From Escherichia coli (GTDB lineage: Bacteria > Pseudomonadota > Gammaproteobacteria > Enterobacterales > Enterobacteriaceae), in assembly GCF_003019035.1 (NCBI RefSeq), contig NZ_CP027447.1: a stretch of DNA of 64,000 nt; one strand, 5' to 3'. Position 1 is the stretch's first letter. Each line of letters opens with the position of its first letter. The translations under genes and the position numbers were made by a program. The notes beneath the pieces are model-generated. The model did no database searches and was not told where the DNA came from. It saw only the letters and a list, made by a program, of their open reading frames with translations. Positions 9,632-31,240 of the stretch are shown in pieces.

Positions 9632-9897
9632 TGCTCTCCCTGATTGCTTTAATGAAAAAGTCATATAAGTTGCCATGAACAATGTTTATTCATCCTGGCG
9701 ATGATAGTTATCACCATTATTCTTTATGGGTATAAAACTATCGGCGCAGCATCCTACCCGTTATCGATAAACGATGCAAAACATCCCCTTACAATCCTGA
9801 AGGGGAATAATACAACTGACGAAAAAATGACAAATCCTTTTGCTGGTTAACCTGTGTACTGTCCTACACTTAATCTTTAAAAGATTGTGAGGGGCAT

Positions 9898-10515: not shown

Positions 10516-10590
10516 GTGGGATACCAGAAGATTATGTTATTTATTATTCAGTAACTTTATCCACAATGATGGGCGTAATTAATTAAATTC

Positions 10591-10803
10591 ATGTTATGTT
10601 TTTTAATTTATATCACTCTCCCTTTCATTCAGCTTGTCTATTTCATTTCCTCTGAAAAGAAACTAACTATTCACATTGTGCAGATGTTTCAGTTGTTATC
10701 ACAGGTATTCTATAATCTCAAAATGTTTTTAATGATGGATATGCTCGGAGTTGGAGATGCAATTAATATTAATACAAATAAAAATATCCGGCAGGTATGC
10801 TAA
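10591..10803 (+). CDS. yncH: Small hypothetical protein, 70 aa
   Basis: Track ORF in an AT-rich region; position matches K-12 yncH. Confidence 0.45.
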   Translation: MLCFLIYITLPFIQLVYFISSEKKLTIHIVQMFQLLSQVFYNLKMFLMMDMLGVGDAININTNKNIRQVC

Positions 10804-11623
10804 AAGGATAAATGGCGTTCTCTGTATTTATTCGCAATTATCTGTAGGACAAATATGGAGAGCTTGATGAGTCAGAGCTAAAACAGCAATTGATTAATAA
10901 ACATGTTGATTTATTCAAGAAAATGGATGTATTTTAAATATTGATTCTTAATATAACCTAATCAATAGATTATCACGTGAGAGCTGCACATTATTGGAGG
11001 GGCAGGGGAAAACACCATTTTGGGAACAATGCATCAGGTACTCTTACCACTGAAGCAAGATCATCCGGGCACCAGGTGGTGGTGCAGTGCTTTGGAAATG
11101 GTCCCCTCGGGGGAGTTGTCATTATTTTCTATGCTATTTGCTTATTATATTCATCAGGTGAATTTAATAAATTCCTAATTTGAAATATCCACTATTAAGC
11201 TAGTGTTTAACGACGTTAAGATGGCAATGTGCAGATCATGTTATCAGGGTGGGGCGGTAGCGTATATTCCTTATACAAACCATCATTCATTTCAATGATT
11301 GTTATTGAATTATTTATTGTTGTGAATAAAAAGACATTATGAATATTGGTTTGACTTTGCATATCAGGTTTTTTATTACTCGCTGTAATGTACGAGCCTG
11401 TCGTGAATAACGTCGAGAACCCATCCGTTGCGTTTGTGATTATTTTGTTGACTAAACAGACACCCGTTTCTCTGAAGTAAAATCCCAGACTAAATCATCA
11501 CATAACCATGACATTTTTCTGATATTCCCCGGTAACGCCAGATGTCGACTCGCTTATCTCATCCGCCCGACATGTTGTACATGCAATATGTGCGGATTAT
11601 TATTCATTTTCACGGAGGTTGCT

Positions 11624-13732
11624 ATGTCAACCGGATTACGTTTCACGCTGGAAGTGGACGGCCTGCCACCGGACGCGTTTGCGGTGGTTTCCTTTCATCT
11701 CACCCAGTCACTCTCTTCACTTTTTTCCCTTGACCTTTCTCTGGTCAGTCAGCAGTTTCTCTCCCTTGAATTTGCGCAGGTGCTGGACAAAATGGCCTAC
11801 CTGACGGTATGGCAGGGCGATGACGTACAGCGCCGGGTGAAAGGCGTGGTGACCTGGTTTGAACTCGGGGAGAACGACAAAAACCAGATGCTGTACAGCA
11901 TAAAGGTGCGCCCGCCGCTGTGGCGGGCAGGACTGCGTCAGAACTTCCGTATCTTCCAGAACGAGGACATCAGAAGCATCCTCGGCACCATACTGCAGGA
12001 AAATGACGTCACGGAGTGGAGTCCGCTGTTCAGCGAGCCGCATCCTTCCCGTGAGTTTTGTGTCCAGTACGGCGAAACCGATTACGATTTCCTGTGCCGG
12101 ATGGCGGCGGAGGAAGGCATCTTCTTTTATGAGGAGCACGCGCAAAAAAGTACCGACCAGAGCCTGGTCCTGTGCGACACCGTGCGTTATCTGCCGGAGT
12201 CCTTTGAGATCCCCTGGAATCCGAACACCCGTACCGAGGTGAGCACCCTATGCATCAGCCAGTTCCTCTACAGCGCACAAATCCGCCCATCTTCCGTGGT
12301 GACCAAAGACTACACCTTTAAACGACCCGGCTGGGCAGGGCGTTTTGATCAGGAAGGCCAGCACCAGGATTACCAGCGCACACAGTATGAAGTGTATGAC
12401 TACCCCGGACGTTTCAAGGGTGCCCACGGGCAGAACTTTGCCTGCTGGCAGATGGATGGCTGGCGAAACAACGCAGAAGTGGCGCGCGGAACAAGCCGTT
12501 CGCCGGAGATATGGCCGGGACGGCGAATTGCGCTGACGGGGCATCCGCAGGCGAACCTGAACCGGGAATGGCAGGTGGTGGCAAGTGAACTGCACGGCGA
12601 GCAGCCGCAGGCGGTGCCGGGACGCAGTGGTTCAGGTACCACGCTGAATAACCACTTTGCGGTAATACCGGCAGACAGAACATGGCGGCCACAGCCGTTG
12701 CTGAAACCGCTGGTGGACGGCCCGCAGAGCGCCGTCGTGACGGGACCGGCAGGAGAAGAAATCTTCTGTGATGAACATGGCCGCGTGCGGGTGAAATTTA
12801 ACTGGGACCGTTATAACCCGTCAAACCAGGACAGTTCATGCTGGATCCGTGTGGCACAGGCGTGGGCAGGCACCGGGTTTGGTAACCTGGCGATACCGCG
12901 TGTGGGTCAGGAGGTCATTGTGGACTTCCTCAACGGCGATCCGGACCAGCCGATTATTATGGGGCGCACCTACCACCAGGAAAACCGCACCCCCGGCAGC
13001 CTGCCGGGAACAAAGACGCAAATGACCATTCGTTCAAAAACCTATAAGGGCAGCGGGTTTAATGAACTGAAGTTTGACGATGCGACAGGGAAAGAACAGG
13101 TCTACATCCACGCGCAGAAGAACATGAACACCGAGGTGCTGAATAACCGCACCACGGATGTGATAAACAACCATGCTGAGACCATCGGCAACAATCAGGT
13201 GATTGCGGTTACCAACAATCAGATACAGACGGTGGGCGTTAACCAGATAGAGACGGTGGGCAGTAACCAGATCATTAAAGTGGGCTCTGTTCAGGTGGAA
13301 ACGATTGGACTTGTTCGTGCGCTGACTGTGGGCGTGGCGTATCAGACGACGGTAGGTGGCATTATGAACACCTCGGTGGCCCTGATGCAGTCCTCGCAGA
13401 TCGGTTTGCATAAATCGTTGATGGTCGGGCTGGGTTATGACGTCAAAGTCGGAAATAACGTTACCTTCACCGTTGGTAAAACGAAAAAGGATGATACCGG
13501 GCAGACCGCGATTTACTCCGCCGGTGAGCATCTGGAACTCTGCTGTGGTAAGGCAAGGCTGGTGCTGACTAAGGACGGACAAATTTTTCTCAACGGCACA
13601 AAAATTCATTTGCAGGGTAAGGAGCAGGTTAATGGTGACTCACTGTTGATTAACTGGAACTGTGCAGCCTCGAAATCCCCACCGAAGACCCCTGATGAAA
13701 AGCAGGATACGCCGGATATGAGAGAGTACTGA
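11624..13732 (+). CDS. vgrG: Type VI secretion spike protein VgrG, 702 aa
   Basis: ATG at 11624 with GGAGG ribosome-binding site; gp27/gp5-like VgrG sequence (…VDFLNGDPDQPIIMGRTYHQEN…); followed 66 nt later by an rhs start. Confidence 0.85.
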   Translation: MSTGLRFTLEVDGLPPDAFAVVSFHLTQSLSSLFSLDLSLVSQQFLSLEFAQVLDKMAYLTVWQGDDVQRRVKGVVTWFELGENDKNQMLYSIKVRPPLWRAGLRQNFRIFQNEDIRSILGTILQENDVTEWSPLFSEPHPSREFCVQYGETDYDFLCRMAAEEGIFFYEEHAQKSTDQSLVLCDTVRYLPESFEIPWNPNTRTEVSTLCISQFLYSAQIRPSSVVTKDYTFKRPGWAGRFDQEGQHQDYQRTQYEVYDYPGRFKGAHGQNFACWQMDGWRNNAEVARGTSRSPEIWPGRRIALTGHPQANLNREWQVVASELHGEQPQAVPGRSGSGTTLNNHFAVIPADRTWRPQPLLKPLVDGPQSAVVTGPAGEEIFCDEHGRVRVKFNWDRYNPSNQDSSCWIRVAQAWAGTGFGNLAIPRVGQEVIVDFLNGDPDQPIIMGRTYHQENRTPGSLPGTKTQMTIRSKTYKGSGFNELKFDDATGKEQVYIHAQKNMNTEVLNNRTTDVINNHAETIGNNQVIAVTNNQIQTVGVNQIETVGSNQIIKVGSVQVETIGLVRALTVGVAYQTTVGGIMNTSVALMQSSQIGLHKSLMVGLGYDVKVGNNVTFTVGKTKKDDTGQTAIYSAGEHLELCCGKARLVLTKDGQIFLNGTKIHLQGKEQVNGDSLLINWNCAASKSPPKTPDEKQDTPDMREY

Positions 13733-13798
13733 TCCCGTACCTGTTCAGTATTCAGTAACAAACAAGCATTAAAAATAAACAGAAGAAGGAATTGAATC

Positions 13799-13815
13799 AT
13801 GAGCGGAAAACCAGC
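13799..13815 (+). pseudogene. rhs start stub (ATG plus 14 nt) cut off by the H-repeat element
   Basis: atgagcggaaaaccagc matches the first 17 nt of the full-length rhs at 21550 (atgagcggaaaacccgc) at 15 of 17 positions; sits at the usual distance after the vgrG stop. Confidence 0.45.
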
Positions 13816-15106
13816 CAGGGAAAGATCATCAGAAGTACACTTTTTGTACTAAACAATTCGCATTTTATGTTTAAAAATTGAGATATTCCTCATTACCTGA
13901 AGCTGTTTTTTATTGCTTATACATGATCAAATACTCCTTACATAATTAAGGAGAACAAAATGGAACTTAAAAAATTGATGGAGCATATTTCTATTATCCC
14001 CGATTACAGACAAGCCTGGAAAGTGGAACATAAATTATCGGACATTCTACTGTTGACTATTTGTGCCGTTATTTCTGGTGCAGAAGGCTGGGAAGATATA
14101 GAGGATTTTGGGGAAACACATCTCGATTTTTTGAAGCAATATGGTGATTTTGAAAATGGTATTCCTGTTCACGATACCATTGCCAGAGTTGTATCCTGTA
14201 TCAGTCCTGCAAAATTTCACGAGTGCTTTATTAACTGGATGCGTGACTGCCATTCTTCAGATGATAAAGGCGTCATTGCAATTGATGGAAAAACGCTCCG
14301 GCACTCTTATGACAAGAGTCGCCGCAGGGGAGCGATTCATGTCATTAGTGCGTTCTCAACAATGCACAGTCTGGTCATCGGACAGATCAAGACGGATGAG
14401 AAATCCAATGAGATTACAGCTATCCCAGAACTTCTTAACATGCTGGATATTAAAGGAAAAATCATCACAACTGATGCGATGGGTTGCCAGAAAGATATTG
14501 CAGAGAAGATACAAAAACAGGGAGGTGATTATTTATTCGCTGTAAAAGGAAATCAGGGGCGGCTTAATAAAGCCTTTGAGGAAAAATTTCCACTGAAAGA
14601 ATTAAATAATCCAGAGCATGACAGTTACGCAATGAGTGAAAAGAGTCACGGCAGAGAAGAAATCCGTCTTCACATTGTTTGCGATGTCCCTGATGAACTT
14701 ATTGATTTCACGTTTGAATGGAAAGGTCTGAAGAAATTATGCGTGGCAGTCTCCTTTCGGTCAATAATAGCAGAACAAAAGAAAGAGCCAGAAATGACGG
14801 TCAGATATTATATCAGTTCTGCTGATTTAACCGCAGAGAAGTTCGCCACAGCAATCCGAAACCACTGGCACGTGGAGAATAAGCTGCACTGGCGTCTGGA
14901 CGTGGTAATGAATGAAGACGACTGCAAAATAAGAAGAGGAAACGCCGCAGAATTATTTTCAGGGATACGGCACATCGCTATTAATATTTTAACGAATGAT
15001 AAGGTATTCAAGGCAGGGTTAAGACGTAAGATGCGAAAAGCTGCCATGGACAGAAACTATCTCGCGTCAGTCCTTGCGGGGAGCGGGCTTTCGTAATCTT
15101 TCCCTG
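13816..15106 (+). mobile_element. H-repeat (ISAs1-family) insertion sequence, copy 1, about 1291 bp
   Basis: Terminal inverted repeats cagggaaagat… (13816) and …atctttccctg (ending 15106); encloses the transposase gene. Confidence 0.75.
13960..15096 (+). CDS. H-repeat-associated (ISAs1-family) transposase, 378 aa
   Basis: Track ORF; about 99% identical to the ORFs at 18738..19874 and 26492..27628. Confidence 0.85.
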
Positions 15107-16889
15107 GCTGCTGGAGTTCACGCGCGACCGCCTGCACCGGGAGACGGTGCGCAGCTTCGGCAGCATGGCAGGCAGTAATGCCGCATACGAACTGACCAGC
15201 ACATACACCCCCGCAGGCCAGTTACAGAGCCAGCACCTGAACAGCCTGGTATATGACCGTGACTACGGGTGGAGTGACAACGGCGACCTGGTGCGCATCA
15301 GCGGCCCGCGACAGACGCGGGAATACGGCTACAGCGCCACGGGCAGGCTGGAGAGTGTGCGCACCCTCGCACCGGACCTGGACATCCGCATCCCGTATGC
15401 CACGGACCCGGCGGGCAACCGGCTGCCGGACCCGGAGCTGCACCCGGACAGTACACTCACAGTGTGGCCGGATAACCGAATCACCGAAGACGCGCACTAC
15501 CTGTACCGTTACGATGAATACGGCAGGCTGACGGAGAAGACGGACCGCATCCCGGCGGGTGTGATACGGACGGACGACGAGCGGACCCACCACTACCGCT
15601 ACGACAGCCAGCACCGCCTGGTGTTCCACACGCGGATACAGCATGGCGAGCCACTGGTCGAGAGCCGCTACCTCTACGACCCGCTGGGACGGCGAATGGC
15701 AAAACGGGTCTGGCGGCGGGAGCGTGACCTGACGGGGTGGATGTCGCTGTCGCGTAAACCGGAGGAGACATGGTACGGGTGGGACGGCGACAGGCTGACG
15801 ACGGTGCAGACTGACACCACACGTATCCAGACGGTCTACCAGCCGGGGAGCTTCACGCCGCTCATCCGTATCGAGACAGAGAACGGCGAACGGGAGAAAA
15901 TGCAACGCCGCAGCCTGGCGGAGAAGTTACAGTCGGAAGGGAGTGAGGACGGTCACGGTGTGGTGTTCCCGGCTGAGCTGGTGAGGATGCTGGACAGGCT
16001 GGAGGAAGAAATCCGGGCAGACCGCGTGAGCAGTGAAAGCCGGGCGTGGCTTGCGCAGTGCGGGCTGACGGTGGAGCAACTGGCCAGACAGGTGGAGCCG
16101 GAATACACACCGGCGCGAAAAGTTCATTTTTACCACTGCGACCACCGGGGCCTGCCGCTGGCGCTCATCAGCGAAGACGGCAATACGGTGTGGAGCGGGG
16201 AGTATGATGAATGGGGCAACCAGCTTAATGAGGAGAACCCGCATCATGTGTATCAGCCATACCGCCTGCCGGGGCAGCAGTATGATGAGGAGTCGGGGCT
16301 GTACTATAACCGCAACCGGTACTATGATCCGTTGCAGGGGAGGTATATTACCCAGGATCCGATTGGGCCGGTGGGGGGGTGGAATCCCTATAGTTATGTG
16401 CTTATTAATCCAGCCCAGTTTATTGACCCAACAGGTTTAACTCAAGAGGACAATTGGACCTATGGTGAGGTAGGTAATAGCTGTGTTACGAGTCAACGCG
16501 ATTTTACTCCCCCGCCCGGACTTGCGGATATGAAAGCCAGCATTGGCGCTGCCTGCTCAAGAAACAATGCTTCCAGAAACTGCCACCCCGTAGATGGTAG
16601 TAATGCTTCTGCACCATCGGATAAAGCCGCATGGGAAAATATTCAAAATGCGACAAATGGTAAAGATTTATCTGGTGGTGGAAATATGTTTTGTGTAGGA
16701 AATGAGGACTGTGCGGTTGTTCATAGCTGTCGTGAAATAGTTAATGCTCGACACCCGGCAGGACGAGTGCGTGAACGTGTAACTCCGTTAACAACGTCAG
16801 GAACAGCAACGCTCAATGGAACAACAGTTTACTTTTATAATGATCCCCGGAATGGCAATTGTCCTGCTCACGAATATATTCCTCAATAA
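15107..16889 (+). pseudogene. N-terminally truncated rhs: 3' core (YD repeats) plus a distinct Cys-rich C-terminal tip
   Basis: Near-identical at nucleotide level to 23994..25260 of the full-length rhs; track ORF 15147..16889; tip after the DPxGL-type core boundary (…IDPTGL) is unrelated to the full-length tip. Confidence 0.75.
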
Positions 16890-16939
16890 AGAAAAGTGGC
16901 CAGACTAAGCTCTAGCCACATTTTTTGGAGATCCTTTTC

Positions 16940-17563
16940 ATGAAAAGGTTTTTTATAACATGTTGCGTTATGACATTATTTTTATTTGTTAAATGTAAAG
17001 CAGCGTGTGTAACTTCCTTATATGAGGTTCAGCAATCGCTCTTTACATACATTTATTTGATTAGACAAGACCCTGTTCATTTTGATTCATATATTAAGAA
17101 TGTGCATAACGAATTAAAAATATTCCATGATATTGATAAAGCAATGAATATAGCCTCAGATATGGTCAAAATTATTGATATAAAGACCCGTTTATCATTT
17201 AATAATGATTTATATATATTACAAGGGGAACGACAGTATGCAATAGTTAAGAGTGAAGGGGAAAGTAGTCAATTAAAATCATCAGCATTTATCATATCTA
17301 ATTACCCACTATTTAAAAACAAAGTTCTGTTAATTTTATCCGCTACTAGTCCCGTTCAGTTGGTTATATTGTCTTTTGATCAATGTCTTAATGTGGAGGT
17401 GTTATTTGATTCAATGTCTCCAGTTTTCGCTAAGTATAGAGAAGATATTAGTGCAACATTACCATTATGGAAGGTTATTTTGACAAAAAATGATATAGAA
17501 TTATATGAGTACCATAGAACAAATCCATACTCACTTAACAAATTATTGAGCATGTCAAAATAA
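16940..17563 (+). CDS. Putative cognate immunity protein with signal peptide, about 207 aa
   Basis: ATG at 16940 with GGAG ribosome-binding site; AT-rich; directly downstream of the rhs tip; N-terminal hydrophobic signal-like segment. Confidence 0.55.
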   Translation: MKRFFITCCVMTLFLFVKCKAACVTSLYEVQQSLFTYIYLIRQDPVHFDSYIKNVHNELKIFHDIDKAMNIASDMVKIIDIKTRLSFNNDLYILQGERQYAIVKSEGESSQLKSSAFIISNYPLFKNKVLLILSATSPVQLVILSFDQCLNVEVLFDSMSPVFAKYREDISATLPLWKVILTKNDIELYEYHRTNPYSLNKLLSMSK

Positions 17564-17743
17564 CGGTCAAGTATTCAACGTTGTAATATTATTCCTTTTG
17601 CTGAGTGTCTCGAACGGCTAAAGTTGACGTAAAATGCCACGTTTTGTGGGCAAACCGAATCGGTTAAAAAGCATGGTCCGGGAAAAGCTTAACATCAGCG
17701 CTATCGGTGCCAAATGTGCAGCAGGCCTTTCCAGCCTGATTAC

Positions 17744-18004
17744 CAGGGCAGGGCGGGATCGTGAATATTGTGATGCATATCACATGAACTCCTGGTTTTA
17801 ACTTATTATTTCGGTTAAAATTTAACCACTGAAATCATTAGGATTCGAGCAAAGGGACGGCATATGGATATTCAAAATTTACTGGATTATATTTCTATAA
17901 TTCCTGATTATCGTCAGCAAGGGAAAATAAGGCATAAATTGTCAGATATTTTATTGCTCACTATATGTGCTATTATTGCCGGTTCTGATGAATGGGAGGA
18001 TATT
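17744..18004 (+). mobile_element. Remnant A of an ISAs1-family element (left end plus 5' transposase), interrupted by remnant B
   Basis: IR-like end cagggcagggcgggatcgtg at 17744; transposase N-terminus [21 protein letters not shown]… from 17864. Confidence 0.5.
17864..18004 (+). pseudogene. ISAs1-family transposase 5' fragment (about 46 codons)
   Basis: Homologous to the N-terminus of the intact H-repeat transposases; ends where the next element's end begins. Confidence 0.5.
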
Positions 18005-18593
18005 CAGGGCAAGATCATGAAAATCGTGATGTAAATCACAATTTTCAACCTGGCTTTAACTCCTTCAGGAGATTAAAATTTAACCTATGGAATAACTAAA
18101 AAGATAAAAAAGGACGCCAGATGAGTATTCAAAGTTTGCTTGATTATATTTCAGTGTTCCCTGATATACGACAACAAGGAAAGGTTAAACATAAATTATC
18201 TGATATTTTGTTTCTCACCGTATGTGCAGTAATTGCAGGTGCCGATGAGTGGCAGGAAATTGAAGATTTTGGACATGAAAGACTGGAATGGCTAAAGAAA
18301 TATGGTGATTTTGATAATGGCATTCCGGTCGATGACACCATTGCACGCGTTGTGAGTAACATTGACAGTTTGGCCTTTGAAAAGATGTTTATTGAATGGA
18401 TGCAGGAGTGCCATGAAATCACTGATGGTGAAATTATAGCAATAGATGGAAAGACCATAAGAGGCTCCTTTGATAAGGGAAAAAGGAAAGGAGCAATCCA
18501 TATGGTGAGTGCATTCTCGACTGAAAATGGTGTTGTACTGGGGCAGGTGAAAACGGAAGCCAAAAGTAATGAGATTACAGCCATTCCAGAGTT
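18005..18593 (+). mobile_element. Remnant B of an ISAs1-family element, interrupted by intact copy 2
   Basis: IR-like end cagggcaagatcatgaaaatcg at 18005; transposase 5' ORF from 18121; homology stops at 18593 where copy 2 IR-L begins. Confidence 0.55.
18121..18593 (+). pseudogene. ISAs1-family transposase N-terminal fragment (about 158 codons, divergent paralog)
   Basis: Track ORF 18121..18630 reads through into the next element's end; roughly 60-70% identical by eye to the intact H-repeat transposase. Confidence 0.6.
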
Positions 18594-19884
18594 CAGGGAA
18601 AGATCATCAGAAGTACACTTTTTGTACTAAACAATTCGCATTTTATGTTTAAAAATTGAGATATTCCTCATTACCTGAAGCTGTTTTTTATTGCTTATAC
18701 ATGATCAAATACTCCTTACATAATTAAGGAGAACAAAATGGAACTTAAAAAATTGATGGAACATATTTCTATTATCCCCGATTACAGACAAGCCTGGAAA
18801 GTGGAACATAAATTATCGGATATTCTACTGTTGACTATTTGTGCCGTTATTTCGGGTGCAGAAGGCTGGGAAGATATAGAGGATTTTGGGGAAACACATC
18901 TCGATTTTTTGAAGCAATATGGTGATTTTGATAATGGTATTCCTGTTCACGATACCATTGCCAGAGTTGTATCCTGTATCAGTCCTGCAAAATTTCACGA
19001 GTGCTTTATTAACTGGATGCGTGACTGCCATTCTTCAGATGATAAAGACGTCATCGCAATTGATGGAAAAACACTCCGGCATTCTTATGACAAGAGTCGC
19101 CGCAGGGGAGCGATTCATGTCATTAGTGCGTTCTCAACAATGCACAGTCTGGTCATCGGACAGATCAGGACGGATGAGAAATCCAATGAGATCACAGCTA
19201 TCCCTGAACTTCTTAACATGCTGGATATTAAAGGAAAAATTATCACAACTGATGCAATGGGTTGCCAGAAAGATATTGCAGAGAAGATACAAAAACAGGG
19301 CGGTGATTATTTATTCGCTGTAAAAGGAAATCAGGGTCGGCTAAATAAAGCCTTTGAGGAAAAATTCCCACTGAAAGAATTAAATAATCCAGAACATGAC
19401 AGTTACGCAATGAGTGAAAAGAGTCACGGCAGAGAAGAAATCCGTCTTCACATTGTTTGCGATGTCCCTGATGAACTTATTGATTTCACGTTTGAATGGA
19501 AAGGTCTGAAGAAATTATGCGTGGCAGTCTCCTTTCGGTCAATAATAGCAGAACAAAAGAAAGAGCCAGAAATGACGGTCAGATATTATATCAGTTCTGC
19601 TGATTTAACCGCAGAGAAGTTCGCCACAGCAATCCGAAACCACTGGCACGTGGAGAATAAGCTGCACTGGCGTCTGGACGTGGTAATGAATGAAGACGAC
19701 TGCAAAATAAGAAGAGGAAACGCCGCAGAATTATTTTCAGGGATACGGCACATCGCTATTAATATTTTGACGAATGATAAGGTATTCAAGGCAGGGTTAA
19801 GACGTAAGATGCGAAAAGCTGCCATGGACAGAAACTATCTCGCGTCAGTCCTTGCGGGGAGCGGGCTTTCGTAATCTTGCCCTG
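18594..19884 (+). mobile_element. H-repeat (ISAs1-family) insertion sequence, copy 2, about 1291 bp
   Basis: IR-L cagggaaagatcatcag at 18594; IR-R …atcttgccctg ending 19884; same length as copy 1. Confidence 0.75.
18738..19874 (+). CDS. H-repeat-associated (ISAs1-family) transposase, 378 aa
   Basis: Track ORF; near-identical to copies 1 and 3. Confidence 0.85.
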
Positions 19885-19896
19885 CTTTGTAATGGT

Positions 19897-20079
19897 ATGG
19901 CAGGAGGATATGAATTTGCAGTAAGTAAATTTGGTCAGTCGGCCTATGATGCCGCACAGGAAAAAGCATTAAATAACTATATGGAATTTGAAATGTTAGA
20001 TTTATTACAAAGCATGGGAGAGAATGTCAATCCAGATGAATATAAGCAGGCGCATGATAGAGTTGTTAATCCAAATTGA
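19897..20079 (+). CDS. Small hypothetical protein, about 60 aa, possibly a toxin-tip remnant
   Basis: ATG at 19897 just after copy 2 IR-R; track ORF 19852..20079 starts inside the insertion sequence; ends 15 nt before the next gene's ATG. Confidence 0.3.
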   Translation: MAGGYEFAVSKFGQSAYDAAQEKALNNYMEFEMLDLLQSMGENVNPDEYKQAHDRVVNPN

Positions 20080-20093
20080 ATGCAGAGGGGAGT

Positions 20094-20657
20094 ATGTTAT
20101 TAAAACTGATAATGTTATTTTCAATATTTTTTATCCCGTTTTTGGCAGGTTGCAGTATGTTTGATGATGTTTTTGAGAAAAACTACTCATTGAGTTCTGT
20201 CGCCAGTTTTCCAGATGACGTTGATGAATTAAAAGAAATATGGTTTTTTTGTGAAAGATGTTTAAGTGATGAGCAGTGCGAAAATCATGACATTAAACAA
20301 TGTAGAGATGTAACTATTCCCGGTAGAGATGAAGCATTAAGTAAAGCTGTAGGCAGAGCCAATGTCGAAGCTGTTTACTTTCTTGTTGATGTGGCAAAAA
20401 CTGATGTCAATGGTATTACAGGTAAATATAAGGAAACACCATTAATTATTGCTGCATATTATGGAACTCAAGCACATCAGGATATAGCTGAATTTTTGCT
20501 ATTGCATGGGGCAGATATTAATAAAACTTACCCAGCCATTGGGCGAAATCCTCTAGGTGTCGCCAGATGGAAGCATAATGTCGATTTCGTTAATTTTCTA
20601 CTGAAGCATGGTGCTGAACCAGCAGTACATATGGGGTCGATTGAGAATAAAGAGTGA
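20094..20657 (+). CDS. Ankyrin-repeat lipoprotein, about 187 aa, immunity-like
   Basis: ATG at 20094 with GAGGGGA ribosome-binding site; lipobox FLAGC; ankyrin repeats (…TPLIIAAYYG…LLLHGADIN…). Confidence 0.6.
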   Translation: MLLKLIMLFSIFFIPFLAGCSMFDDVFEKNYSLSSVASFPDDVDELKEIWFFCERCLSDEQCENHDIKQCRDVTIPGRDEALSKAVGRANVEAVYFLVDVAKTDVNGITGKYKETPLIIAAYYGTQAHQDIAEFLLLHGADINKTYPAIGRNPLGVARWKHNVDFVNFLLKHGAEPAVHMGSIENKE

Positions 20658-21100
20658 GATTTAACAAAAATGCAATTCATGCTCTCGCCTTGGGTGACGG
20701 TATTGATACTGCTTTTAAGTGTTCAGGAAAAATGGAAAGTGGTAAACCCTTAAAATCTTCGGGCAAATGGGATTACTCTGTTGGTGGGACAAATGGTGCC
20801 TTTCTTTATCTTAAAGACTATTCAAATATTTTGACGGCTGGCCACACAGGAAATCTGGCAGTTACTTTTCTTGGAAGTTACAATGCTCAATATTCAATAA
20901 ACGGAAACTCTCTGGATGTAGTTGTAACAAATTCTTCAACGATACAATCAGCGACACATCCCCCAATCCTGGAGTATACAAAATGGTGGCAGGATAATAT
21001 TGGTAATCCTTTGGATAGAAAATTTCAAAAAGGTCCCACGTCCCCAAAAACACAAACCATAAATTTACACTTTGATTTGTCATGTGCGTGCAAAAAATGA
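20654..21100 (+). CDS. Hypothetical protein, 148 aa, no signal peptide
   Basis: Track ORF with GTG start overlapping the upstream stop (GTGA) and stop overlapping the downstream ATG; no recognisable domain. Confidence 0.35.
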   Translation: MRFNKNAIHALALGDGIDTAFKCSGKMESGKPLKSSGKWDYSVGGTNGAFLYLKDYSNILTAGHTGNLAVTFLGSYNAQYSINGNSLDVVVTNSSTIQSATHPPILEYTKWWQDNIGNPLDRKFQKGPTSPKTQTINLHFDLSCACKK

Positions 21101-21480
21101 AAATTTTATTTATGTTATTATTAATTATCTTGAGTGGATGTGATGGCGAAAATGATGCCAAATTTGTTGGGCAATGGCTTGCTGATATTGATGGTGATAT
21201 AAAATCAGAATTGATCGTGAAGGCAAATGGAATTTTTTATTTCAAGAATATGCCTATGGAGACAGTTTGTCGCGAGGATAAAACATATAAGGCTAATTTT
21301 TTCGGGGATTGGACTATTAATATTGACAATAGGATTGATATTTCAATGGATAATGTTAATTCTGAACGGTGTAATATTCCATCCTCGTATTTAATTAATG
21401 GGTTTTATGATGGTGGATATTTTTTATGTCAGAAAGGATTGTCTTTTTTCCAGACGGACCTGATGAGCCAGGTAATATGA
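21097..21480 (+). CDS. Small lipoprotein, about 127 aa, immunity-like
   Basis: ATG at 21097; lipobox ILSGC; AT-rich. Confidence 0.45.
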   Translation: MKILFMLLLIILSGCDGENDAKFVGQWLADIDGDIKSELIVKANGIFYFKNMPMETVCREDKTYKANFFGDWTINIDNRIDISMDNVNSERCNIPSSYLINGFYDGGYFLCQKGLSFFQTDLMSQVI

Positions 21481-21549
21481 TCATTTATATTAAACAATGA
21501 AAGTATTGATCGTGAGCAGATTAAATATATAAGAAATTAAGGAGATACC

Positions 21550-24500
21550 ATGAGCGGAAAACCCGCGGCACGCCAGGGTGATGCCACGCTGAAAGGCGGT
21601 CCGATAGTCCAGGGGTCAGCGGGGGTGCTGATAGGCGCGCCCACCGGCGTGGCGTGCTCGGTGTGTCCGGGCGGGATGACTTCGGGCAACCCGGTAAATC
21701 CGCTGCTGGGGGCGAAGGTGCTGCCCGGCGAGACGGACCTTGCCCTGCCCGGCCCGCTGCCGTTCATTCTCTCCCGCACCTACAGCAGCTACCGGACGAG
21801 GACGCCTGCCCCGGTGGGCGTTTTCGGCCCCGGCTGGAAAGCGCCTTCGGATATCCGCTTACAGCTACGTGATGACGCACTGATACTCAACGACAACGGC
21901 GGGCGGAGCATTCACTTTGAGCCGCTGCTGCCGGGGGAGGCGGTGTACAGCCGCAGCGAGTCAATGTGGCTGGTGCGCGGTGGTAAGGCAGCGCAGCCGG
22001 ACGGCCACACGCTGGCGCGACTGTGGGGGGCGCTGCCGCCGGATATCCGGTTAAGCCCGCATCTTTACCTGGCGACCAACAGCGCACAGGGGCCGTGGTG
22101 GATACTCGGCTGGTCAGAGCGGGTGCCGGGTACTGAGGACGTACTGCCAGCGCCGCTGCCGCCGTACCGGGTGCTTACCGGGCTGGCGGACCGCTTCGGG
22201 CAGACGCTGACGTACCGGCGTGAGGCCGCCGGTGACCTGGCCGGGGAAATCACCGGCGTGACGGACGGTGCCGGGCGGAAGTTCCGTCTGGTGCTGACCA
22301 CGCAGGCGCAGCGTGCGGAAGAGGCCCGCACCTCTTCGCTATCTTCTTCTGACCGTTCCCGCCCTCTCTCAGCCTCAGCGTTCCCCGACACACTGCCCGG
22401 TACGGAATACGGCCCCGACAGGGGCATCCGTCTTTCGGCGGTGTGGCTGATGCACGACCCGGCATACCCGGAAAGCCTGCCCGGTGCGCCACTGGCGCGG
22501 TACACGTATACGGAAGCCGGTGAACTGCTGGCGGTATATGACCGCAGCAATACGCAGGTGCGCGCTTTCACGTATGACGCGCAGCACCCGGGCCGGATGG
22601 TGGCGCACCGTTACGCGGGAAGGCCGGAGATGCGCTACCGCTACGACGATACGGGGCGGGTGGTGGAGCAACTGAACCCGGCAGGGTTAAGCTACCGCTA
22701 TCTTTATGAGCAGGACCGCATCACCATCACGGACAGCCTGAACCGGCGAGAGGTGCTGCATACAGAAGGCGGGGCCGGGCTGAAGCGGGTGGTGAAAAAA
22801 GAACTGGCGGACGGCAGCGTCACGCACAGCGGGTATGACGCGGCAGGAAGGCTCACGGCACAGACGGACGCGGCGGGACGGCAGACAGAGTACGGTCTGA
22901 ATGTGGTGTCAGGCGATATCACGGACATCACCACGCCGGACGGGCGGGAGACGAAATTTTACTATAACGACGGGAACCAGGTGACGGCAGTGGTGTCCCC
23001 GGACGGGCTGGAGAGCCGCCGGGCGTATGATGAGCGGGACAGGCTGGTAACGGAGACATCGCGCAGTGGGGACGTCATCCGGTATGCTTATGATAATCCG
23101 CACAGTGAATTACCGGCCACGACAACAGATGCGACGGGCAGCACCCGGCAGATGACCTGGAGCCGCTACGGGCAGTTGCTGGCGTTCACCGACTGCTCGG
23201 GCTACCAGACCCGCTATGAATACGACCGCTTCGGCCAGATGACGGCGGTCCACCGCGAGGAAGGCATCAGCCTTTACCGCCGCTATGACAACCGTGGCCG
23301 GTTAACCTCGGTGAAAGACGCACAGGCCCGTGAAACGCAGTATGAGTACAACGCCGCAGGCGACCTGACTGCCGTTATCACCCCGGATGGCAACCGGAGT
23401 GAGACACAGTACGATGGGTGGGGAAAGGCCATCAGCACCACGCAGGGCGGGCTGACGCGCAGTATGGAGTACGATGCTGCCGGACGTATCACCACGCTGA
23501 CTAACGAGAACGGCAGCCACAGCGACTTTAGTTACGATGCGCTGGACCGCCTGATACAGCAGGGCGGCTTTGACGGGCGGACGCAACGTTATCATTATGA
23601 CCTGACCGGAAAACTCACGCAGAGTGAAGATGAGGGGCTTGTCATCCTCTGGTACTACGATGAATCGGACCGTATTACTCACCGCACGGTAAACGGTGAA
23701 CCGGCAGAACAGTGGCGGTATGACGGCCACGGCTGGCTGAGAGAAATCAGCCACCTGAGCGAAGGCCACCGTGTTGCCGTCCACTATGGCTATGATAATA
23801 AAGGCCGCCTGACCAGTGAGCGCCAGACGGTGCATCACCCGGAGACGGGAGAGCTGCTCTGGCAGCATGAGACCGGACATGCGTACAACGAACAGGGGCT
23901 GGCAAACCGCGTCACGCCGGACAGTCTGCCGCCGGTGGAGTGGCTGACCTATGGTAGCGGTTATCTGGCAGGCATGAAGCTGGGCGGGACGCCGCTGCTG
24001 GAGTTCACGCGCGACCGCCTGCACCGTGAGACGGTGCGCAGCTTCGGCAGCATGGCAGGCAGTAATGCCGCATACGAACTGACCAGCACATACACCCCTG
24101 CAGGCCAGTTACAGAGTCAGCACCTGAACAGCCTGGTGTATGACCGTGACTACGGGTGGAATGACAACGGAGACCTGGTGCGCATCAGCGGCCCGCGACA
24201 GACGCGGGAATACGGCTACAGCGCCACGGGCAGGCTGGAGAGTGTGCGCACCCTCGCACCGGACCTGGACATCCGCATCCCGTATGCCACGGACCCGGCG
24301 GGCAACCGGCTGCCGGACCCGGAGCTGCACCCGGACAGTACACTCACAGTGTGGCCGGATAACCGCATCGCGGAGGATGCGCACTATGTCTACCGCCACG
24401 ATGAATACGGCAGGCTGACGGAGAAGACGGACCGCATCCCGGCGGGTGTGATACGGACGGACGACGAGCGGACCCACCACTACCACTACGACAGCCAGCA

Positions 24501-25803
24501 CCGCCTGGTGTTCTACACGCGGATACAGCATGGCGAGCCACTGGTCGAGAGCCGCTACGTCTACGACCCGCAGGGACGGCGAATGGCGAAACGGGTATGG
24601 CGGCGGGAGCGTGACCTGACGGGGTGGATGTCGCTGTCGCGTAAACCGGAGGTGACGTGGTACGGCTGGGACGGCGACCACCTGACGACGGTGCAGACCG
24701 ACAGCACACGTATCCAGACGGTATACGAGCCGGGAAGCTTCACACCGCTCATCCGCATCGAAACAGACAACGGCGAGCGGGAGAAAACGCAGCGGCGGAG
24801 CCTGGCGGAGAAGCTCCAGCAGGAAGGGAGCGAGGACGGACACGGTGTGGTGTTCCCGGCTGAACTGGTGAGGATGCTGGACAGGCTGGAGGAAGAAATC
24901 CGGGCAGACCGCGTGAGCGGTGAAAGCCGGACGTGGCTTGCACAGTGCGGGCTGGCGGTGGAGCAACTGGAAAAACAGGTGGAGCCGGAATACACGCCGG
25001 AACGCACACTGCATCTTTACCACTGCGACCACCGGGGACTGCCGCTGGCGCTTATCAGCGAAGACGGCAATACGGTGTGGAGCGCGGAGTATGATGAATG
25101 GGGAAACCTGCTTAATGAGGAGAACCCGCATCATGTGTATCAGTCATACCGTCTGCCGGGGCAGCAGCATGATGAGGAGTCGGGGCTGTATTATAACCGG
25201 AACCGGTACTATGACCCGCTACAGGGGAGGTATATCACCCAGGATCCAATCGGGCTAAGAGGTGAATGGAATCTGTATAAATATCCATTAAACCCTGTTC
25301 GGTTTATAGATTCTTTGGGTTTAAAATTCCATGTTAACGGTGATCCAAGTGATTTTAATCAGGCTGTTGAGTATTTAAAACAAGATTCACGAATGAAAGA
25401 AGCTATAGATTTTTTATCAAGCTCTGAAGAAACCATAAAGATAGAGTATATTGATGAAACCGACGTTAGATTTGACCCGGATAAAATGACTATATATTGG
25501 AATGGTAAGGCGGCTTTATTTTGTTCAACTGATTTAAAATCGAAATCACAATCACCTGCATTAGGTTTGGGGCATGAGTTTGCTCATGCGCACTTATATC
25601 TTATTGATAAGGATGGTTATATGGGGCTTGTGAGACGTGCGGATGAACAATATAAAAATAAAGAAGAGGCGAGAGTTATCACTTTAATTGAACAGCATGC
25701 GGCGAAAACTTTAGGTGAGTGTACCAGAACAGCATATAATGGAGTGTATTATCGTGTGAATACACCAACGCAGACGGCAACAATAAATGGCACGCCAGAA
25801 TAG
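21550..25803 (+). CDS. Full-length Rhs polymorphic toxin, 1417 aa: PAAR-like N-terminus, YD-repeat shell, HExxH-containing C-terminal tip
   Basis: Track ORF with AAGGAG ribosome-binding site; N-terminus [11 protein letters not shown]…; repeated YD motifs; core boundary …YITQDPIGL…IDSLGL; tip contains [10 protein letters not shown]. Confidence 0.9.
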
Positions 25804-25815
25804 TGAGATTTTTTT

Positions 25816-26265
25816 ATGATGAAATATTTGATGGTTTTATTGTCTCTATTTTCTGCTTCGGTATTGGGGATGGGGCGAGTGAATGAATTGTGTGGAATAG
25901 ATAGTGTGAAAACGATAGAAATAATTAATCTTCCAGCATATGTTACCACCTTAACCCCGCTTAGCAAGGAAGGTCTCAAGAGAATATACAAACATAAAGT
26001 GGTGGTGAATGGAGTTAGCGATTTTTATGCTGGTGAGATAATTGATTTATTGCAAATGAAGTATTTCAGGAAGGAGGAGAATAACGATATAAGATGGGGG
26101 GTTGACATTGTTTCGAATAAAAATAATAAATGTGAAATTTATTTTGATGGTTTTGGTGAATGTGGAAGTGTGAATGGCATTAACGTATGTTTTGAAAAAA
26201 ATGAAATGATAGATTGGATTAAAAAAGAAATCCCTTTTCTGTCGCAAGAAATAGGTGGTCTTTAA
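25816..26265 (+). CDS. Putative cognate immunity protein with signal peptide, 149 aa
   Basis: Track ORF 13 nt after the rhs stop; AT-rich; N-terminus MMKYLMVLLSLFSASVLG. Confidence 0.55.
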   Translation: MMKYLMVLLSLFSASVLGMGRVNELCGIDSVKTIEIINLPAYVTTLTPLSKEGLKRIYKHKVVVNGVSDFYAGEIIDLLQMKYFRKEENNDIRWGVDIVSNKNNKCEIYFDGFGECGSVNGINVCFEKNEMIDWIKKEIPFLSQEIGGL

Positions 26266-26322
26266 ATGGTAGGGCAATATTCAAAGACAGTATAGGTAAC
26301 TATTTGTATGGACATGTAAGGT

Positions 26323-27638
26323 CAGGGAAAGATCACGTAACGCTGCTCAGGGAAAGATCACGTAACGCTGCTTTTTTGTACTAAACAATCCGCATTTTAT
26401 GTTTAAAAATTGAGATATTCCTCATTACCTAAAGCTGTTTTTTATTGCTTATACATGATCAAATACTCCTTACATAATTAAGGAGAACAAAATGGAACTT
26501 AAAAAATTGATGGAACATATTTCTATTATCCCCGATTACAGACAAGCCTGGAAAGTGGAACATAAATTATCGGATATTCTACTGTTGACTATTTGTGCCG
26601 TTATTTCGGGTGCAGAAGGCTGGGAAGATATAGAGGATTTTGGGGAAACACATCTCGATTTTTTGAAGCAATATGGTGATTTTGATAATGGTATTCCTGT
26701 TCACGATACCATTGCCAGAGTTGTATCCTGTATCAGTCCTGCAAAATTTCACGAGTGCTTTATTAACTGGATGCGTGACTGCCATTCTTCAGATGATAAA
26801 GACGTCATCGCAATTGATGGAAAAACACTCCGGCATTCTTATGACAAGAGTCGCCGCAGGGGAGCGATTCATGTCATTAGTGCGTTCTCAACAATGCACA
26901 GTCTGGTCATCGGACAGATCAGGACGGATGAGAAATCCAATGAGATCACAGCTATCCCTGAACTTCTTAACATGCTGGATATTAAAGGAAAAATTATCAC
27001 AACTGATGCAATGGGTTGCCAGAAAGATATTGCAGAGAAGATACAAAAACAGGGCGGTGATTATTTATTCGCTGTAAAAGGAAACCAGGGGCGGCTAAAT
27101 AAAGCCTTCGAGGAAAAATTTCCGCTGAAAGAATTAAATAATCCAGAGCATGACAGTTACGCAATGAGTGAAAAGAGTCACGGCAGAGAAGAAATCCGTC
27201 TTCACATTTTTTGCGATGTCCCTGATGAACTTATTGATTTCACGTTTGAATGGAAAGGTCTGAAGAAATTATGCGTGGCAGTCTCCTTTCGGTCAATAAT
27301 AGCAGAACAAAAGAAAGAGCCAGAAATGACGGTCAGATATTATATCAGTTCTGCTGATTTAACCGCAGAGAAGTTCGCCACAGCAATCCGAAACCACTGG
27401 CACGTGGAGAATAAGCTGCACTGGCGTCTGGACGTGGTAATGAATGAAGACGACTGCAAAATAAGAAGAGGAAATGCAGCAGAATTATTTTCAGGGATAC
27501 GGCACATCGCTATTAATATTTTGACGAATGATAAGGTATTCAAGGCAGGGTTAAGACGTAAGATGCGAAAAGCAGCCATGGACAGAAACTATCTGGCGTC
27601 AGTCCTTGCGGGGAGCGGGCTTTCGTAATCTTTCCCTG
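26323..27638 (+). mobile_element. H-repeat (ISAs1-family) insertion sequence, copy 3, with a 25-bp tandem duplication at its left end
   Basis: cagggaaagatcacgtaacgctgct occurs twice in tandem (26323..26372); IR-R …atctttccctg ends at 27638. Confidence 0.7.
26492..27628 (+). CDS. H-repeat-associated (ISAs1-family) transposase, 378 aa
   Basis: Track ORF; near-identical to copies 1 and 2. Confidence 0.85.
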
Positions 27639-27744
27639 TTTGTTTATATAAATGCCAAGATATTCTTTCTCAAAATATTGACTTCAGATTAACCGTGTTC
27701 CACGCAAACAATTTTCAAACATTCATCAATAGATAAGGAATTCC

Positions 27745-28212
27745 ATGTTTATACGACCAGTCAAACCTTCAGATGTTGAACCATTACTGGATATGCTGCT
27801 TGCCAGTGGACAATTTGATCAAGATGGCCTTCATCATGTACAAAAAACACTAACACATTATTTCTCAGGTCAATCTGCCGATTTATGGTTTAGTGCAGAA
27901 CACTTAGGACTGGCAGGGATTGCCTATTGCGCTCCTGAAGTGATGACAAATGATGTCTGGAATTTATTAATGCTCTGGATCAGTCCTTCCCATCAGCGCC
28001 AGGGAGTGGGACATCTGCTGATTAACGAAATAGAAAAAGAGCTCACAATTAAACAGGCAAGACTACTTTTAGTAGAGACCTCCAGCCATATCGATTTTAG
28101 TGCCGCCCGCGCATTTTATACAAAACAGGGCTTTATCAATGAAGCTATAATACGCAATTACTATGATGTTGGTGAGGATAAATTAATCTTCACTAAGAAT
28201 ATACAATCGTGA
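27745..28212 (+). CDS. GNAT-family N-acetyltransferase, 155 aa
   Basis: Track ORF; acetyl-CoA-binding motif (QRQGVGHLL). Confidence 0.7.
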   Translation: MFIRPVKPSDVEPLLDMLLASGQFDQDGLHHVQKTLTHYFSGQSADLWFSAEHLGLAGIAYCAPEVMTNDVWNLLMLWISPSHQRQGVGHLLINEIEKELTIKQARLLLVETSSHIDFSAARAFYTKQGFINEAIIRNYYDVGEDKLIFTKNIQS

Positions 28213-29880: not shown

Positions 29881-29985
<105 letters not shown>

Positions 29986-30014
29986 GCCAGACACAGCGCC
30001 GTCAGGCGCTGTTG

Positions 30015-31240
<1,226 letters not shown>

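Follow-up and report, generated by a model that had tools for sequence, protein, structure and literature searches.

Three direct H-rpt/ISEc1 copies at the junctions of a rearranged Escherichia coli RhsE locus

H-repeats (H-rpts) have been known as parts of the Rhs elements of Escherichia coli since the early 1990s. Those of K-12 reportedly comprise H-rptB, H-rptC1 to H-rptC3, and H-rptE, the last being ydcC, and the RhsC element is said to hold several H-rpts, some of them defective. H-rpt-associated recombination has also reportedly been described, in 1994 for example, in the O-antigen (rfb) clusters of Salmonella and Vibrio cholerae. By analogy only, IS1, IS26, and composite-transposon-like structures are known for IS-mediated adjacent deletions and for exchange of IS-bounded blocks. 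Rhs genes also undergo C-terminal displacement, which produces orphan toxin/immunity arrays (Jackson et al. 2009; PMC2935791); these orphans arise downstream of the intact gene via rhs core homology, and the text of that paper nowhere mentions "H-rpt," "insertion sequence," or "transposase."

The window analyzed here, 64,000 nucleotides of E. coli contig NZ_CP027447.1, includes the RhsE locus (yncH-vgrG-rhs...yddH-nhoA), in which self-BLAST revealed three direct 1,291-bp repeats on the plus strand at 13816 to 15106 (H1), 18594 to 19884 (H2), and 26348 to 27638 (H3), with start-to-start distances of 4,778 bp (H1-H2) and 7,754 bp (H2-H3). A preliminary description had reported three near-identical H-repeat copies in direct orientation within 14 kb. 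This was confirmed: its interval, 13816 to 27638, runs exactly from the left end of H1 to the right end of H3, and the copies are 97.2 to 98.5% identical in DNA and 98.9 to 99.7% in protein, so that the much lower nucleotide identity it had named as a counterargument was not found. Each copy carries an intact 378-aa transposase open reading frame (ORF; 13960 to 15096, 18738 to 19874, and 26492 to 27628), scoring 414 to 417 bits against NF033564 (transpos_ISAs1; cutoff, 70 bits), with 417 bits for H1, whose ORF also contains the Pfam domains PF13808 and PF01609. A single 1,137-bp ORF thus fills a 1,291-bp element with CAGGG-type inverted ends (CAGGGAAAGAT...ATCTTTCCCTG), as in the ISAs1 family, where one ORF occupies a 1.2- to 1.5-kb element between CAGGG inverted repeats. 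The terminal repeat CAGGGAAAGAT/ATCTTTCCCTG is perfect over 11 bp in H1 and H3 and matches at 10/11 positions in H2; H3, which has a variant subterminal left end (positions 14 to 25), matches at 20/25 positions between its ends. H1 is identical (1291/1291) to an ST648 copy annotated in RefSeq as "ISAs1-like element ISEc1 family transposase," and the other full-length copies among the matches listed are 96.4 to 98.1% identical to it. Orthologous H-rpt copies are annotated as ISEc1 or ydcC in RefSeq. The three repeats are thus H-rpt/ISEc1 elements of the ISAs1 family that encode a DDE transposase.

These copies share with the K-12 H-rpts the length of 1,291 bp, the 378-codon ORF, the CAGGG-type inverted ends, and a location beside partial rhs cores on the downstream side of rhs toxin/immunity cassettes; H-rptE even lies in the same chromosomal locus (RhsE; ydcD-ydcC-pptA-yddH-nhoA). 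However, the window holds three intact copies instead of the one of K-12 RhsE, and one of them follows directly on nt 17 of the vgrG-linked rhs. K-12 RhsC is comparable in that several H-rpts accompany partial cores and orphan toxin tips in a single Rhs element; in the window, by contrast, no H-rpt ORF is defective, and H2 has two further truncated ISAs1 elements (a' and b') stacked against it. As in the rfb clusters, H-rpts stand at the junction of gene blocks of different origin, the locus and the cargo being different. The partial cores with alternative tips and immunity genes beside a full-length rhs, reshuffled via conserved sequence, resemble the products of C-terminal displacement, but here the truncated gene is upstream, near vgrG, and H-rpt ends, not positions inside the core, form the breakpoints. 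A three-copy H-rpt arrangement in an Rhs locus is therefore of a long-known kind and not new, and this locus was already in RefSeq (strain SCU-301); the finding is ordinary and matters little beyond annotation.

All the genes discussed lie on the plus strand, and together they present a GC-rich core (63%), AT-rich tips (36 to 46% GC), small downstream ORFs (29 to 36% GC), and linkage to vgrG, which are the features of a vgrG-rhs T6SS effector locus with putative toxin and immunity activities. The upstream anchor is vgrG (11624 to 13732; TIGR03361, 624 bits), which encodes the T6SS spike protein and is orthologous to the RhsE-locus vgrG of E. coli C, D8, and ST648. It is followed by ATGAGCGGAAAACCAGC (13799 to 13815), the 5'-most 17 nt of the vgrG-linked rhs, severed by H1; the intact rhs genes of five other strains start with exactly these letters. 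With only this 5' remnant, the vgrG-adjacent rhs of the strain is dead. Beyond H1, an rhs 3' part without N terminus (15107 to 16889; Pfam RHS domain) comprises the core from nt 2445 and the toxin tip CT1 (62.8 and 45.9% GC, respectively) and is 97.7% identical to the intact main rhs of YZMc3-1 from nt 2445 onward. Next come imm1 (16925 to 17563; 29.3% GC), a putative immunity gene by its position only, and an IS1 fragment (approximately 17595 to 17745); in YZMc3-1, 88-3493, D8, and SCU-301, rhs(CT1) is likewise followed, collinearly, by a hypothetical gene and an IS1 pseudogene. Two cut-off left ends then precede H2: a' (17749 to 18004; 256 bp, starting with CAGGGCAGGGCGGGAT), from another ISAs1-family element, and b' (18005 to 18593), the left 589 bp of an ISEc26-like ISAs1 element, which is 71% identical to a'. 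The 169-aa ORF of b' (18121 to 18630) matches NF033564 with 183 bits over profile positions 1 to 130 only, and b', assigned to the ISEc26 family by RefSeq annotation, is 96.9% identical to a longer copy in E. coli C. The right end of H2 severs another toxin tip, CT3, leaving its final 195 bp (19885 to 20079), which are 97.3% identical to the first rhs of D8 from nt 4009 to its end. An ankyrin-repeat gene (putative immunity gene 3; Pfam Ank_2, 5e-21) and two small ORFs (20076 to 21480) lie upstream of rhs2, in a block collinear with D8 and carried by only 3 of 5,426 genomes. The sole intact rhs, rhs2 (21550 to 25803; 1,417 aa; NF041261 RHS_core, 2717 bits), ends in tip CT2 and is 96.2% identical, immunity gene included, to the main rhs of EC42405; the putative immunity gene imm2 (25816 to 26265; 33.8% GC) is collinear with EC42405 and 88-3493. 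By sequence reading, an extra 25-bp H3 left end (26323 to 26347), found in SCU-301 too, stands in tandem with H3. On the right chromosomal flank, a GNAT acetyltransferase gene (27745 to 28212; Pfam GNAT families) occupies the place of the pptA found in most strains, and homology to strains without an H-rpt at this side begins exactly at 27639.

Self-BLAST aligned H1 with H2 at 98.45% identity (20 mismatches, no gaps; 13816 to 15106 versus 18594 to 19884), H2 with H3 at 98.07% (18593 to 19890 versus 26347 to 27643), and H1 with H3 at 97.95% (13841 to 15106 versus 26373 to 27638); full-length comparison (1,291 bp) of H1 with H3 gives 36 differing sites (97.2%). The handful of residue differences noted earlier among the ORFs starting at 13960, 18738, and 26492 amounts to one to four per pair, including the FENG/FDNG, DKGV/DKDV, and IVCD/IFCD changes: E65D, G104D, and K144R distinguish H1 from H2, V240F distinguishes H2 from H3, and all four separate H1 from H3. 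Among the copies, dS is 0.044 to 0.090 and dN/dS 0.025 to 0.049. Chance cannot produce 1.3-kb repeats that are 98% identical, and at a divergence of about 2% (dS of 0.04 to 0.09), none of the copies is a recent duplicate of another. The identical runs that they share, 265 to 653 bp in direct repeats, are ample for RecA-dependent crossing-over; a divergence of about 2% would reduce recombination through mismatch repair.

Each H copy is flush against truncated gene ends. H1 joins rhs nt 17 to core nt 2445 of a YZMc3-1-type rhs(CT1), H2 joins the stacked left ends a' and b' to the terminal 195 bp of a different rhs toxin, and H3 lies between the imm2 side and the GNAT gene. Wherever synteny with other strains is lost, the break coincides exactly with an H-rpt end, and it is at such ends that RhsE differences between strains break. 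D8 matches the window at 9000 to 13815 and 19885 to 22510, on either side of the H1-to-H2 block, which stands in for nt 18 to 4008 of the first D8 rhs; by replacing the body of the vgrG-linked rhs, this block has thus put a truncated rhs upstream of the intact gene. Near identity with ST648 genomes extends over approximately 8100 to 15106 (7 kb, five differing sites) and stops at the last base of H1, the rest of the window showing 0 to 70 differences per kb. The three-copy layout recurs in a single other genome (1 of 5,426 complete genomes), SCU-301, to which five of the six H-rpt junctions are confined among other genomes; the left rhs17-H junction is found in 83 of the 5,426. Other lineages have the locus collapsed around a single H-rpt, as in ansP-H-yddH, or vgrG[1-16]-H-vgrG 3' part in 2012C-4502, and a further collapsed form, vgrG-rhs17-H-imm-H'-pptA, is of the ST648 type, its right-hand H junction occurring in 79 genomes. 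A composite transposon (H1-passenger-H2) was also considered and rejected: the flanks AAAACCAGC and CTTTGTAATG do not match, giving no target-site duplication of the unit, and the unit was not found at other sites, its inner junctions occurring only in SCU-301 at the same site.

H2 itself is composite. It equals H1 at positions 1 to 167 and H3 at positions 85 to 737, in an identical run of 653 bp, and it shares six derived alleles with H1 at 738 to 1248; a permutation test supported this mosaic of H1-like and H3-like sequence (p = 7.5e-5). The central allele common to H2 and H3 had no 100% match in the 5,426 genomes, and SCU-301 carries, at another site, an additional ISEc1 copy with 99.5% identity to the H2/H3 tract. 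Both the H2 mosaic and the point at which the ST648 tract ends bear the signature of homologous exchange.

Very probably, the locus consists of separate ISEc1 copies that border blocks of different ancestry, its order having been built by exchange within H-rpts, probably along with adjacent deletions. The H copies would then mainly supply portable homology and mark where IS-associated deletions end, each having come with, or now bordering, a distinct block. H1 groups with the vgrG side and H3 borders the chromosome; the H1-to-H2 interval encloses a 5'-truncated rhs(CT1)-imm1 cassette, and the H2-to-H3 interval the rhs(CT3) tail, its putative ankyrin immunity gene, and the intact rhs2(CT2)-imm2. 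Crossovers and gene conversion within H-rpts would account for the present order, to which transposase-mediated adjacent deletions probably contributed, and rhs core repeats and classical C-terminal displacement offer additional reordering routes. The earlier suggestion that the repeats probably explain the scrambled order is partly supported by the position of the synteny breaks, the H2 mosaic, and the replacement of a D8-type rhs body, with those other routes as alternatives or additions. It had also been proposed that the repeats allow deletion or amplification of the cassettes: unequal crossing-over between the present copies could indeed delete 4.8, 7.8, or 12.5 kb or amplify them, and collapsed single-H-rpt versions exist elsewhere, but no deletion or amplification product between H1, H2, and H3 was found in the 5,426 genomes, and SCU-301 keeps all three. 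The comparator strains allow no unique reconstruction of the order and number of events.

Elements of the ISAs1 family normally generate target-site duplications of 8 to 10 bp by the ISfinder norm. None was found flanking H1, H2, H3, or some 13 further copies in other strains (approximately 16 in total). This is a footprint of insertion history that counts against simple insertion, not against ISEc1 identity; it is not what simple insertion and later passive recombination usually leave behind and may point to an active transposase mechanism instead. It is possible, if rather unlikely, that the H-rpt transposase itself made most junctions by intramolecular one-ended or adjacent-deletion transposition, and not RecA-dependent recombination between copies. 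An H-rpt end would attack nearby DNA and delete what lies between, and flush, duplication-free junctions could equally come from such events. Consistently, H ends border, in the same orientation, genes with an internal deletion, in rhs[1-17]-H1-rhs[2445 onward] of the window as in the vgrG of 2012C-4502; the intact transposase ORFs show strong purifying selection; and a nested series of left-side truncation points faces one H left end: IS1' at window position 17710 (YZMc3-1), a' position 16 (88-3493), b' position 589 (window), and b at approximately 1200 (E. coli C and K-12-type strains). Flush ends without duplications, nested end points on one IS end, and direct copies around a passenger are also reminiscent of IS1 and IS26, from which the locus differs in that the H1-H2 block neither has flanking duplications nor occurs elsewhere as a unit and in that H-rpt transposition is undocumented, none having been observed experimentally (Zhao et al. 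1993, as relayed in PMC3032704). H-rpts are, moreover, nearly absent from true plasmids (25 of 72,556 records, those inspected being mostly chromosomal pieces), which argues for very low mobility. Insertion followed by H-rpt x H-rpt recombination yields the same junctions, and the mosaic and the tract boundary described above speak for homologous exchange.

More doubtful is the proposal that H-rpt/ISEc1 is an active remodeller of T6SS effector loci, its transposase making adjacent deletions or captures anchored at the ends of the element, and not a passive repeat. It would explain the copies without target-site duplications, the left ends that lie 16 to 17 nt past the start of vgrG or rhs, the gene body being lost, and the head-to-tail truncated ISAs1 left ends (a', b', and the 25 bp at H3), to which strain 88-3493 adds 16 bp of a' as a further stacked left end. 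The strong purifying selection on the intact ORFs (dN/dS of 0.03 to 0.05) would then reflect maintained function. If true, transposase activity in junction making would provide a mechanism of toxin-cassette turnover distinct from C-terminal displacement.

Exchange within H-rpts between blocks of different ancestry, the preferred reading, also has to be set against amplification. Here, unequal crossover between H-rpts would have amplified an H-rpt-bounded unit, with later tip displacement and deletions blurring the duplicates. The direct orientation fits, and both intervals hold an rhs core segment (15107 to 16368 and 23994 to 25255), then a tip and an immunity gene. Moreover, the window order CT1-imm1-IS1'-H-CT3 tail-imm3-x-rhs is a circular permutation of the D8 order, rhs(CT3)-imm3-x-rhs(CT1)-imm1-IS1'-H, exactly as a tandem duplication would give. 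However, the core segments, the 1,262-bp repeats detected by self-BLAST, are only 93.7% identical and are the only homology between the intervals, the spacings are unequal (4,778 versus 7,754 bp), the H copies differ at 20 to 36 sites, and several extra events would be required, all of which makes amplification improbable. A recent burst in which a single active ISEc1 master copy transposed into three neighboring sites, suggested by the intact ORFs and complete ends, is effectively refuted by the divergence between copies (dS of 0.04 to 0.09) and the missing duplications; in addition, H3 has a different subterminal left end, and H1 with its left junction is common to 83 genomes of another lineage and is thus older than the arrangement. 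Although IS copies are a common cause of misassembly, there is only a negligible chance that assembly put one or two genuine copies in the wrong place or duplicated them, given the 20 to 36 differing sites, the private SNPs and unique flanks on both sides of every copy, and the same copies and junctions in the independent SCU-301 assembly. As the locus stands, direct 1.3-kb repeats flank the sole intact rhs2-imm2 pair, which one recombination step could thus remove.

The window carries the RhsE locus (yncG-yncH-vgrG-rhs...yddH-nhoA), in which three 1,291-bp copies of ISEc1, H1 (13816-15106), H2 (18594-19884), and H3 (26348-27638), lie as direct repeats, each with an intact ORF of 378 codons (at 13960, 18738, and 26492, respectively). 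The ORFs match Pfam DDE_Tnp_1_assoc and DDE_Tnp_1 and score 414-417 bits against the NCBIfam equivalog transpos_ISAs1 (cutoff 70). The element termini are CAGGGAAAGAT...ATCTTTCCCTG, and H1 is identical over 1291/1291 positions to an ST648 copy (RefSeq name, "ISAs1-like element ISEc1 family transposase"). These repeats are the H-repeat (H-rpt) of E. coli Rhs elements. Zhao et al. in 1993 reportedly described the H-rpt as a component of the Rhs elements of E. coli K-12, and the original Rhs description is said to include several H-rpts per element, as well as H-rpts beside partial cores. Apparent literature matches to "ISEc1" proved to be ISEc10 and ISEc12.

The leftmost listed part of the locus is vgrG (11624-13732); a mechanical ORF call begins at 11588, and the start used in other strains is the ATG at 11624 (MSTGLRF...). 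An rhs gene reduced to its first 17 nt (rhs17, 13799-13815) directly precedes H1, which is directly followed by an rhs core from nt 2445 onward with toxin tip CT1 (15107-16889), a putative immunity gene (imm1, 16925-17563), and an IS1 fragment. Truncated left ends of two other ISAs1-family elements, a' (17749-18004) and b' (18005-18593, ISEc26-like), come next, the latter abutting H2 at 18594. H2 directly abuts the final 195 bp of CT3 (19885-20079), the toxin tip of a different rhs; there follow a gene with ankyrin repeats, two small ORFs, rhs2 (the sole intact rhs, with tip CT2; 21550-25803), and the putative immunity gene imm2 (25816-26265). To the right of H3, a GNAT acetyltransferase gene (27745-28212) is followed by yddH and nhoA. 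The GC contents of these parts (rhs cores, 63%; toxin tips, 36-46%; putative immunity ORFs, 29-36%; H-rpts, 40.5%) fit the classical Rhs composite. The GNAT gene sits where most strains have pptA, and PT62-type strains have the GNAT flank beside a locus devoid of vgrG, rhs, and H-rpt.

Pairwise BLAST yielded 98.45% identity for H1/H2 (20 mismatches, no gaps), 98.07% for H2/H3, and 97.95% over 1,266 bp for H1/H3; across all 1,291 positions, the pairs differ at 20, 24, and 36 sites, respectively. The preliminary description of three near-identical direct repeats therefore holds at the DNA level, where identity is not far below that of the proteins, and the interval that it delimited runs exactly from the outer end of H1 to that of H3. 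Its claim that the transposases differ at a handful of residues was likewise borne out: E65D, G104D, and K144R distinguish H1 from H2, V240F distinguishes H2 from H3, and these changes include the examples that it named. Between-copy dS values of 0.044-0.090 (dN/dS, 0.025-0.049) indicate that neither a burst of transposition nor a duplication produced H1-H3 recently.

The H-rpts themselves bear clear signs of gene conversion, and they coincide with a recombination-tract boundary. H2 is a mosaic whose positions 1-167 are identical to H1 and whose positions 85-737 are identical to H3 (H1 has 14 differences within this 653-bp run); from 738 to 1248, it has six derived alleles in common with H1, and at these sites H3 retains the state that predominates among six other copies. 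A permutation test found the stretch of H3-like sites in H2 significant (p=7.5e-5), and the central allele common to H2 and H3 had no perfect match in the comparison set used for layouts and junctions (5,426 complete genomes of E. coli). ST648 generally diverges from the window by 0.5-7% per kb (70 sites per kb at most). Only five sites differ, however, between ST648-lineage genomes and a 7-kb tract at ~8100-15106 (yncG/yncH-vgrG-rhs17-H1), which looks like an inter-lineage recombination tract. Its right edge is the last base of H1, which marks this copy as the crossover site or the homology limit of the exchange. Identical runs between the copies span 265-653 bp, far above the minimum for RecA-dependent recombination in E. 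coli, and the ~2% mismatch between copies would lower the recombination rate.

Intact counterparts of the pieces were found in other strains. The order is vgrG, intact rhs(CT1), imm1, IS1', and H-rpt in YZMc3-1 and 88-3493, vgrG, rhs(CT2), imm2, and H-rpt in EC42405, and vgrG, rhs(CT3), ankyrin gene, a segment x, and second rhs in D8. Window 15107-17710 matches the YZMc3-1/88-3493-type rhs(CT1) from nt 2445 onward at 97.7% identity, and D8 matches 9000-13815 at 97.8% and 19885-22510 at 97.3%. Relative to D8, the 6,069-bp H1-to-H2 block thus exactly replaces nt 18-4008 of the first rhs, which accounts for a truncated rhs beside vgrG and ahead of the intact one. All synteny breaks with respect to these four strains fall at H-rpt ends.

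Among the 5,426 genomes, 83 contain the left junction (vgrG-rhs17-H1) at 100% identity, and 79 of these have the right junction of the collapsed ST648-type locus (vgrG-rhs17-H-small ORF-defective H-pptA, with rhs absent altogether). Since they are common to another lineage, H1 and its left junction are older than the present arrangement. Elsewhere in the set, the window layout was found in SCU-301 only, as were the H1-right junction, the a'-b'-H2 stack, the H2-right junction (its CT3-tail block occurs in just three genomes), and the imm2-H3 and H3-GNAT junctions. SCU-301, in which the same RhsE locus with three copies had already been deposited and annotated, is 99.5-99.6% identical to the window, with indel noise, and has the same copies and junctions. 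Its sole structural difference is unconnected with the H-rpts: 971 bp of rhs2 (window 22942-23912; SCU-301 coordinate ~14410) are missing between two 10-bp CACGCCGGAC repeats, which may reflect either a true deletion at microhomology or faulty assembly. The deletion length is no multiple of three, and the RefSeq annotation is of a frameshifted rhs. A recurrent H-rpt to rhs-core junction to the right of H1 was rejected because other strains join elsewhere: ~98 bp upstream in YZMc3-1 and D8, 27 nt downstream in the plasmid-labelled CP044351, and with ~59 extra bp in ten other genomes.

Three diverged ISEc1 copies thus bound blocks of different ancestry through flush, duplication-free junctions. 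We infer that exchange within H-rpts built the RhsE order, probably in combination with IS-associated adjacent deletions. Several multi-step paths from D8-, YZMc3-1-, EC42405-, and ST648-type loci fit, and no single stepwise history is therefore preferred. The earlier proposal that the repeats drive deletion or amplification and explain the scrambled order is reasonable and supported in part: the mosaic H2 and the breaks at H-rpt ends speak for it, but no product of unequal crossing-over between the present copies was observed, and SCU-301 retains all three. Such crossing-over could delete 4,778, 7,754, or 12,532 bp, the two larger deletions removing the only intact rhs. What it describes is a long-recognized property of a long-known element.

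The flush junctions fit homologous recombination and transposase-mediated adjacent deletion alike, and the two cannot be separated. Adjacent deletion is suggested by the absence of target-site duplications at about 16 H-rpt copies examined, by a recurrent geometry, with the left end of the H-rpt placed 16-17 nt past a start codon and the body of the gene lost, and by truncation points that, across strains, form a nested series on the left side of one and the same H-rpt left end. In 2012C-4502 (NZ_CP027440.1, 4187-5477), for instance, vgrG is broken off 16 nt past its start codon by an H-rpt whose other end adjoins the 3' part of the gene, the same geometry as that of rhs17, H1, and the rhs core from nt 2445 in the window. 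Against this, the E. coli W genome paper, where it cites Zhao et al. 1993, states that H-rpt transposition has not been observed (PMC3032704), and ISEc1 is nearly absent from real plasmids. That the ISEc1 transposase actively makes the RhsE H-rpt junctions, the one interpretation that would be somewhat new, is improbable. No 8-10-bp direct repeats were found flanking H1, H2, or H3, nor were left-flank/right-flank cross-matches among them, as would remain if two simple insertions had once recombined; a convincing target motif was likewise absent from the flanks of some 12 H-rpt copies. Microhomology at the H1 junctions was dismissed, as native rhs nt 25-33 (CAGGGAGAT) resemble the IS end but the window lacks the preceding 7 nt, and the apparent GGCACGCC match at the rhs-core junction is inexact.

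Among three inspected plasmid records with ISEc1, two held chromosomal genes and are evidently mislabelled chromosome pieces, and the third is an unannotated IncX4-typed plasmid. Many such records contain genes of the chromosome (ansP-H-yddH-nhoA; nfrB/nfrA) or reach megabase size; CP054253.1 and NZ_OY754386.1, among others, appear to be mislabelled chromosome pieces. The ansP-H-yddH arrangement, found in a "plasmid" record with chromosomal genes that is evidently a fragment of a chromosome, and vgrG[1-16]-H-vgrG 3' part in 2012C-4502 are further collapsed or truncated forms; in pBone4_4, the RhsE locus is fully collapsed, with one H-rpt flanked by ansP and yddH.

In the a'-b'-H2 stack (17749-18593 plus H2), three ISAs1-family left ends are arranged head to tail, each opening with its own CAGGG exactly at the cut of the previous element (a', 256 bp; b', 589 bp). 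Strain 88-3493 has only 16 bp of a' before the H-rpt, and E. coli C and K-12-type strains have ~1,200 bp of b. The subterminal left end (element positions 14-25; window 13829-13840, 18607-18618, and 26361-26372) occurs in two allelic forms. The H3 form (CGTAACGCTGCT), found also in 2012C-4502 and pBone4_4, matches the right end at 20/25 positions; the H1/H2 form (TCAGAAGTACAC) matches it at only 14/25 and gives rise to a small hairpin, AGTACA-N5-TGTACT. At 26323-26347, 25 bp of the H3 left end (CAGGGAAAGATCACGTAACGCTGCT) are repeated in tandem with the full H3, in SCU-301 too; this partial copy reflects either duplication by slippage or the residue of an H-rpt-into-H-rpt insertion. Finally, an IS621 (IS110 family) insertion between nhoA and yddE (29931-31207; ORF at 30035-31015, minus strand) is present in SCU-301 and absent from ST648.
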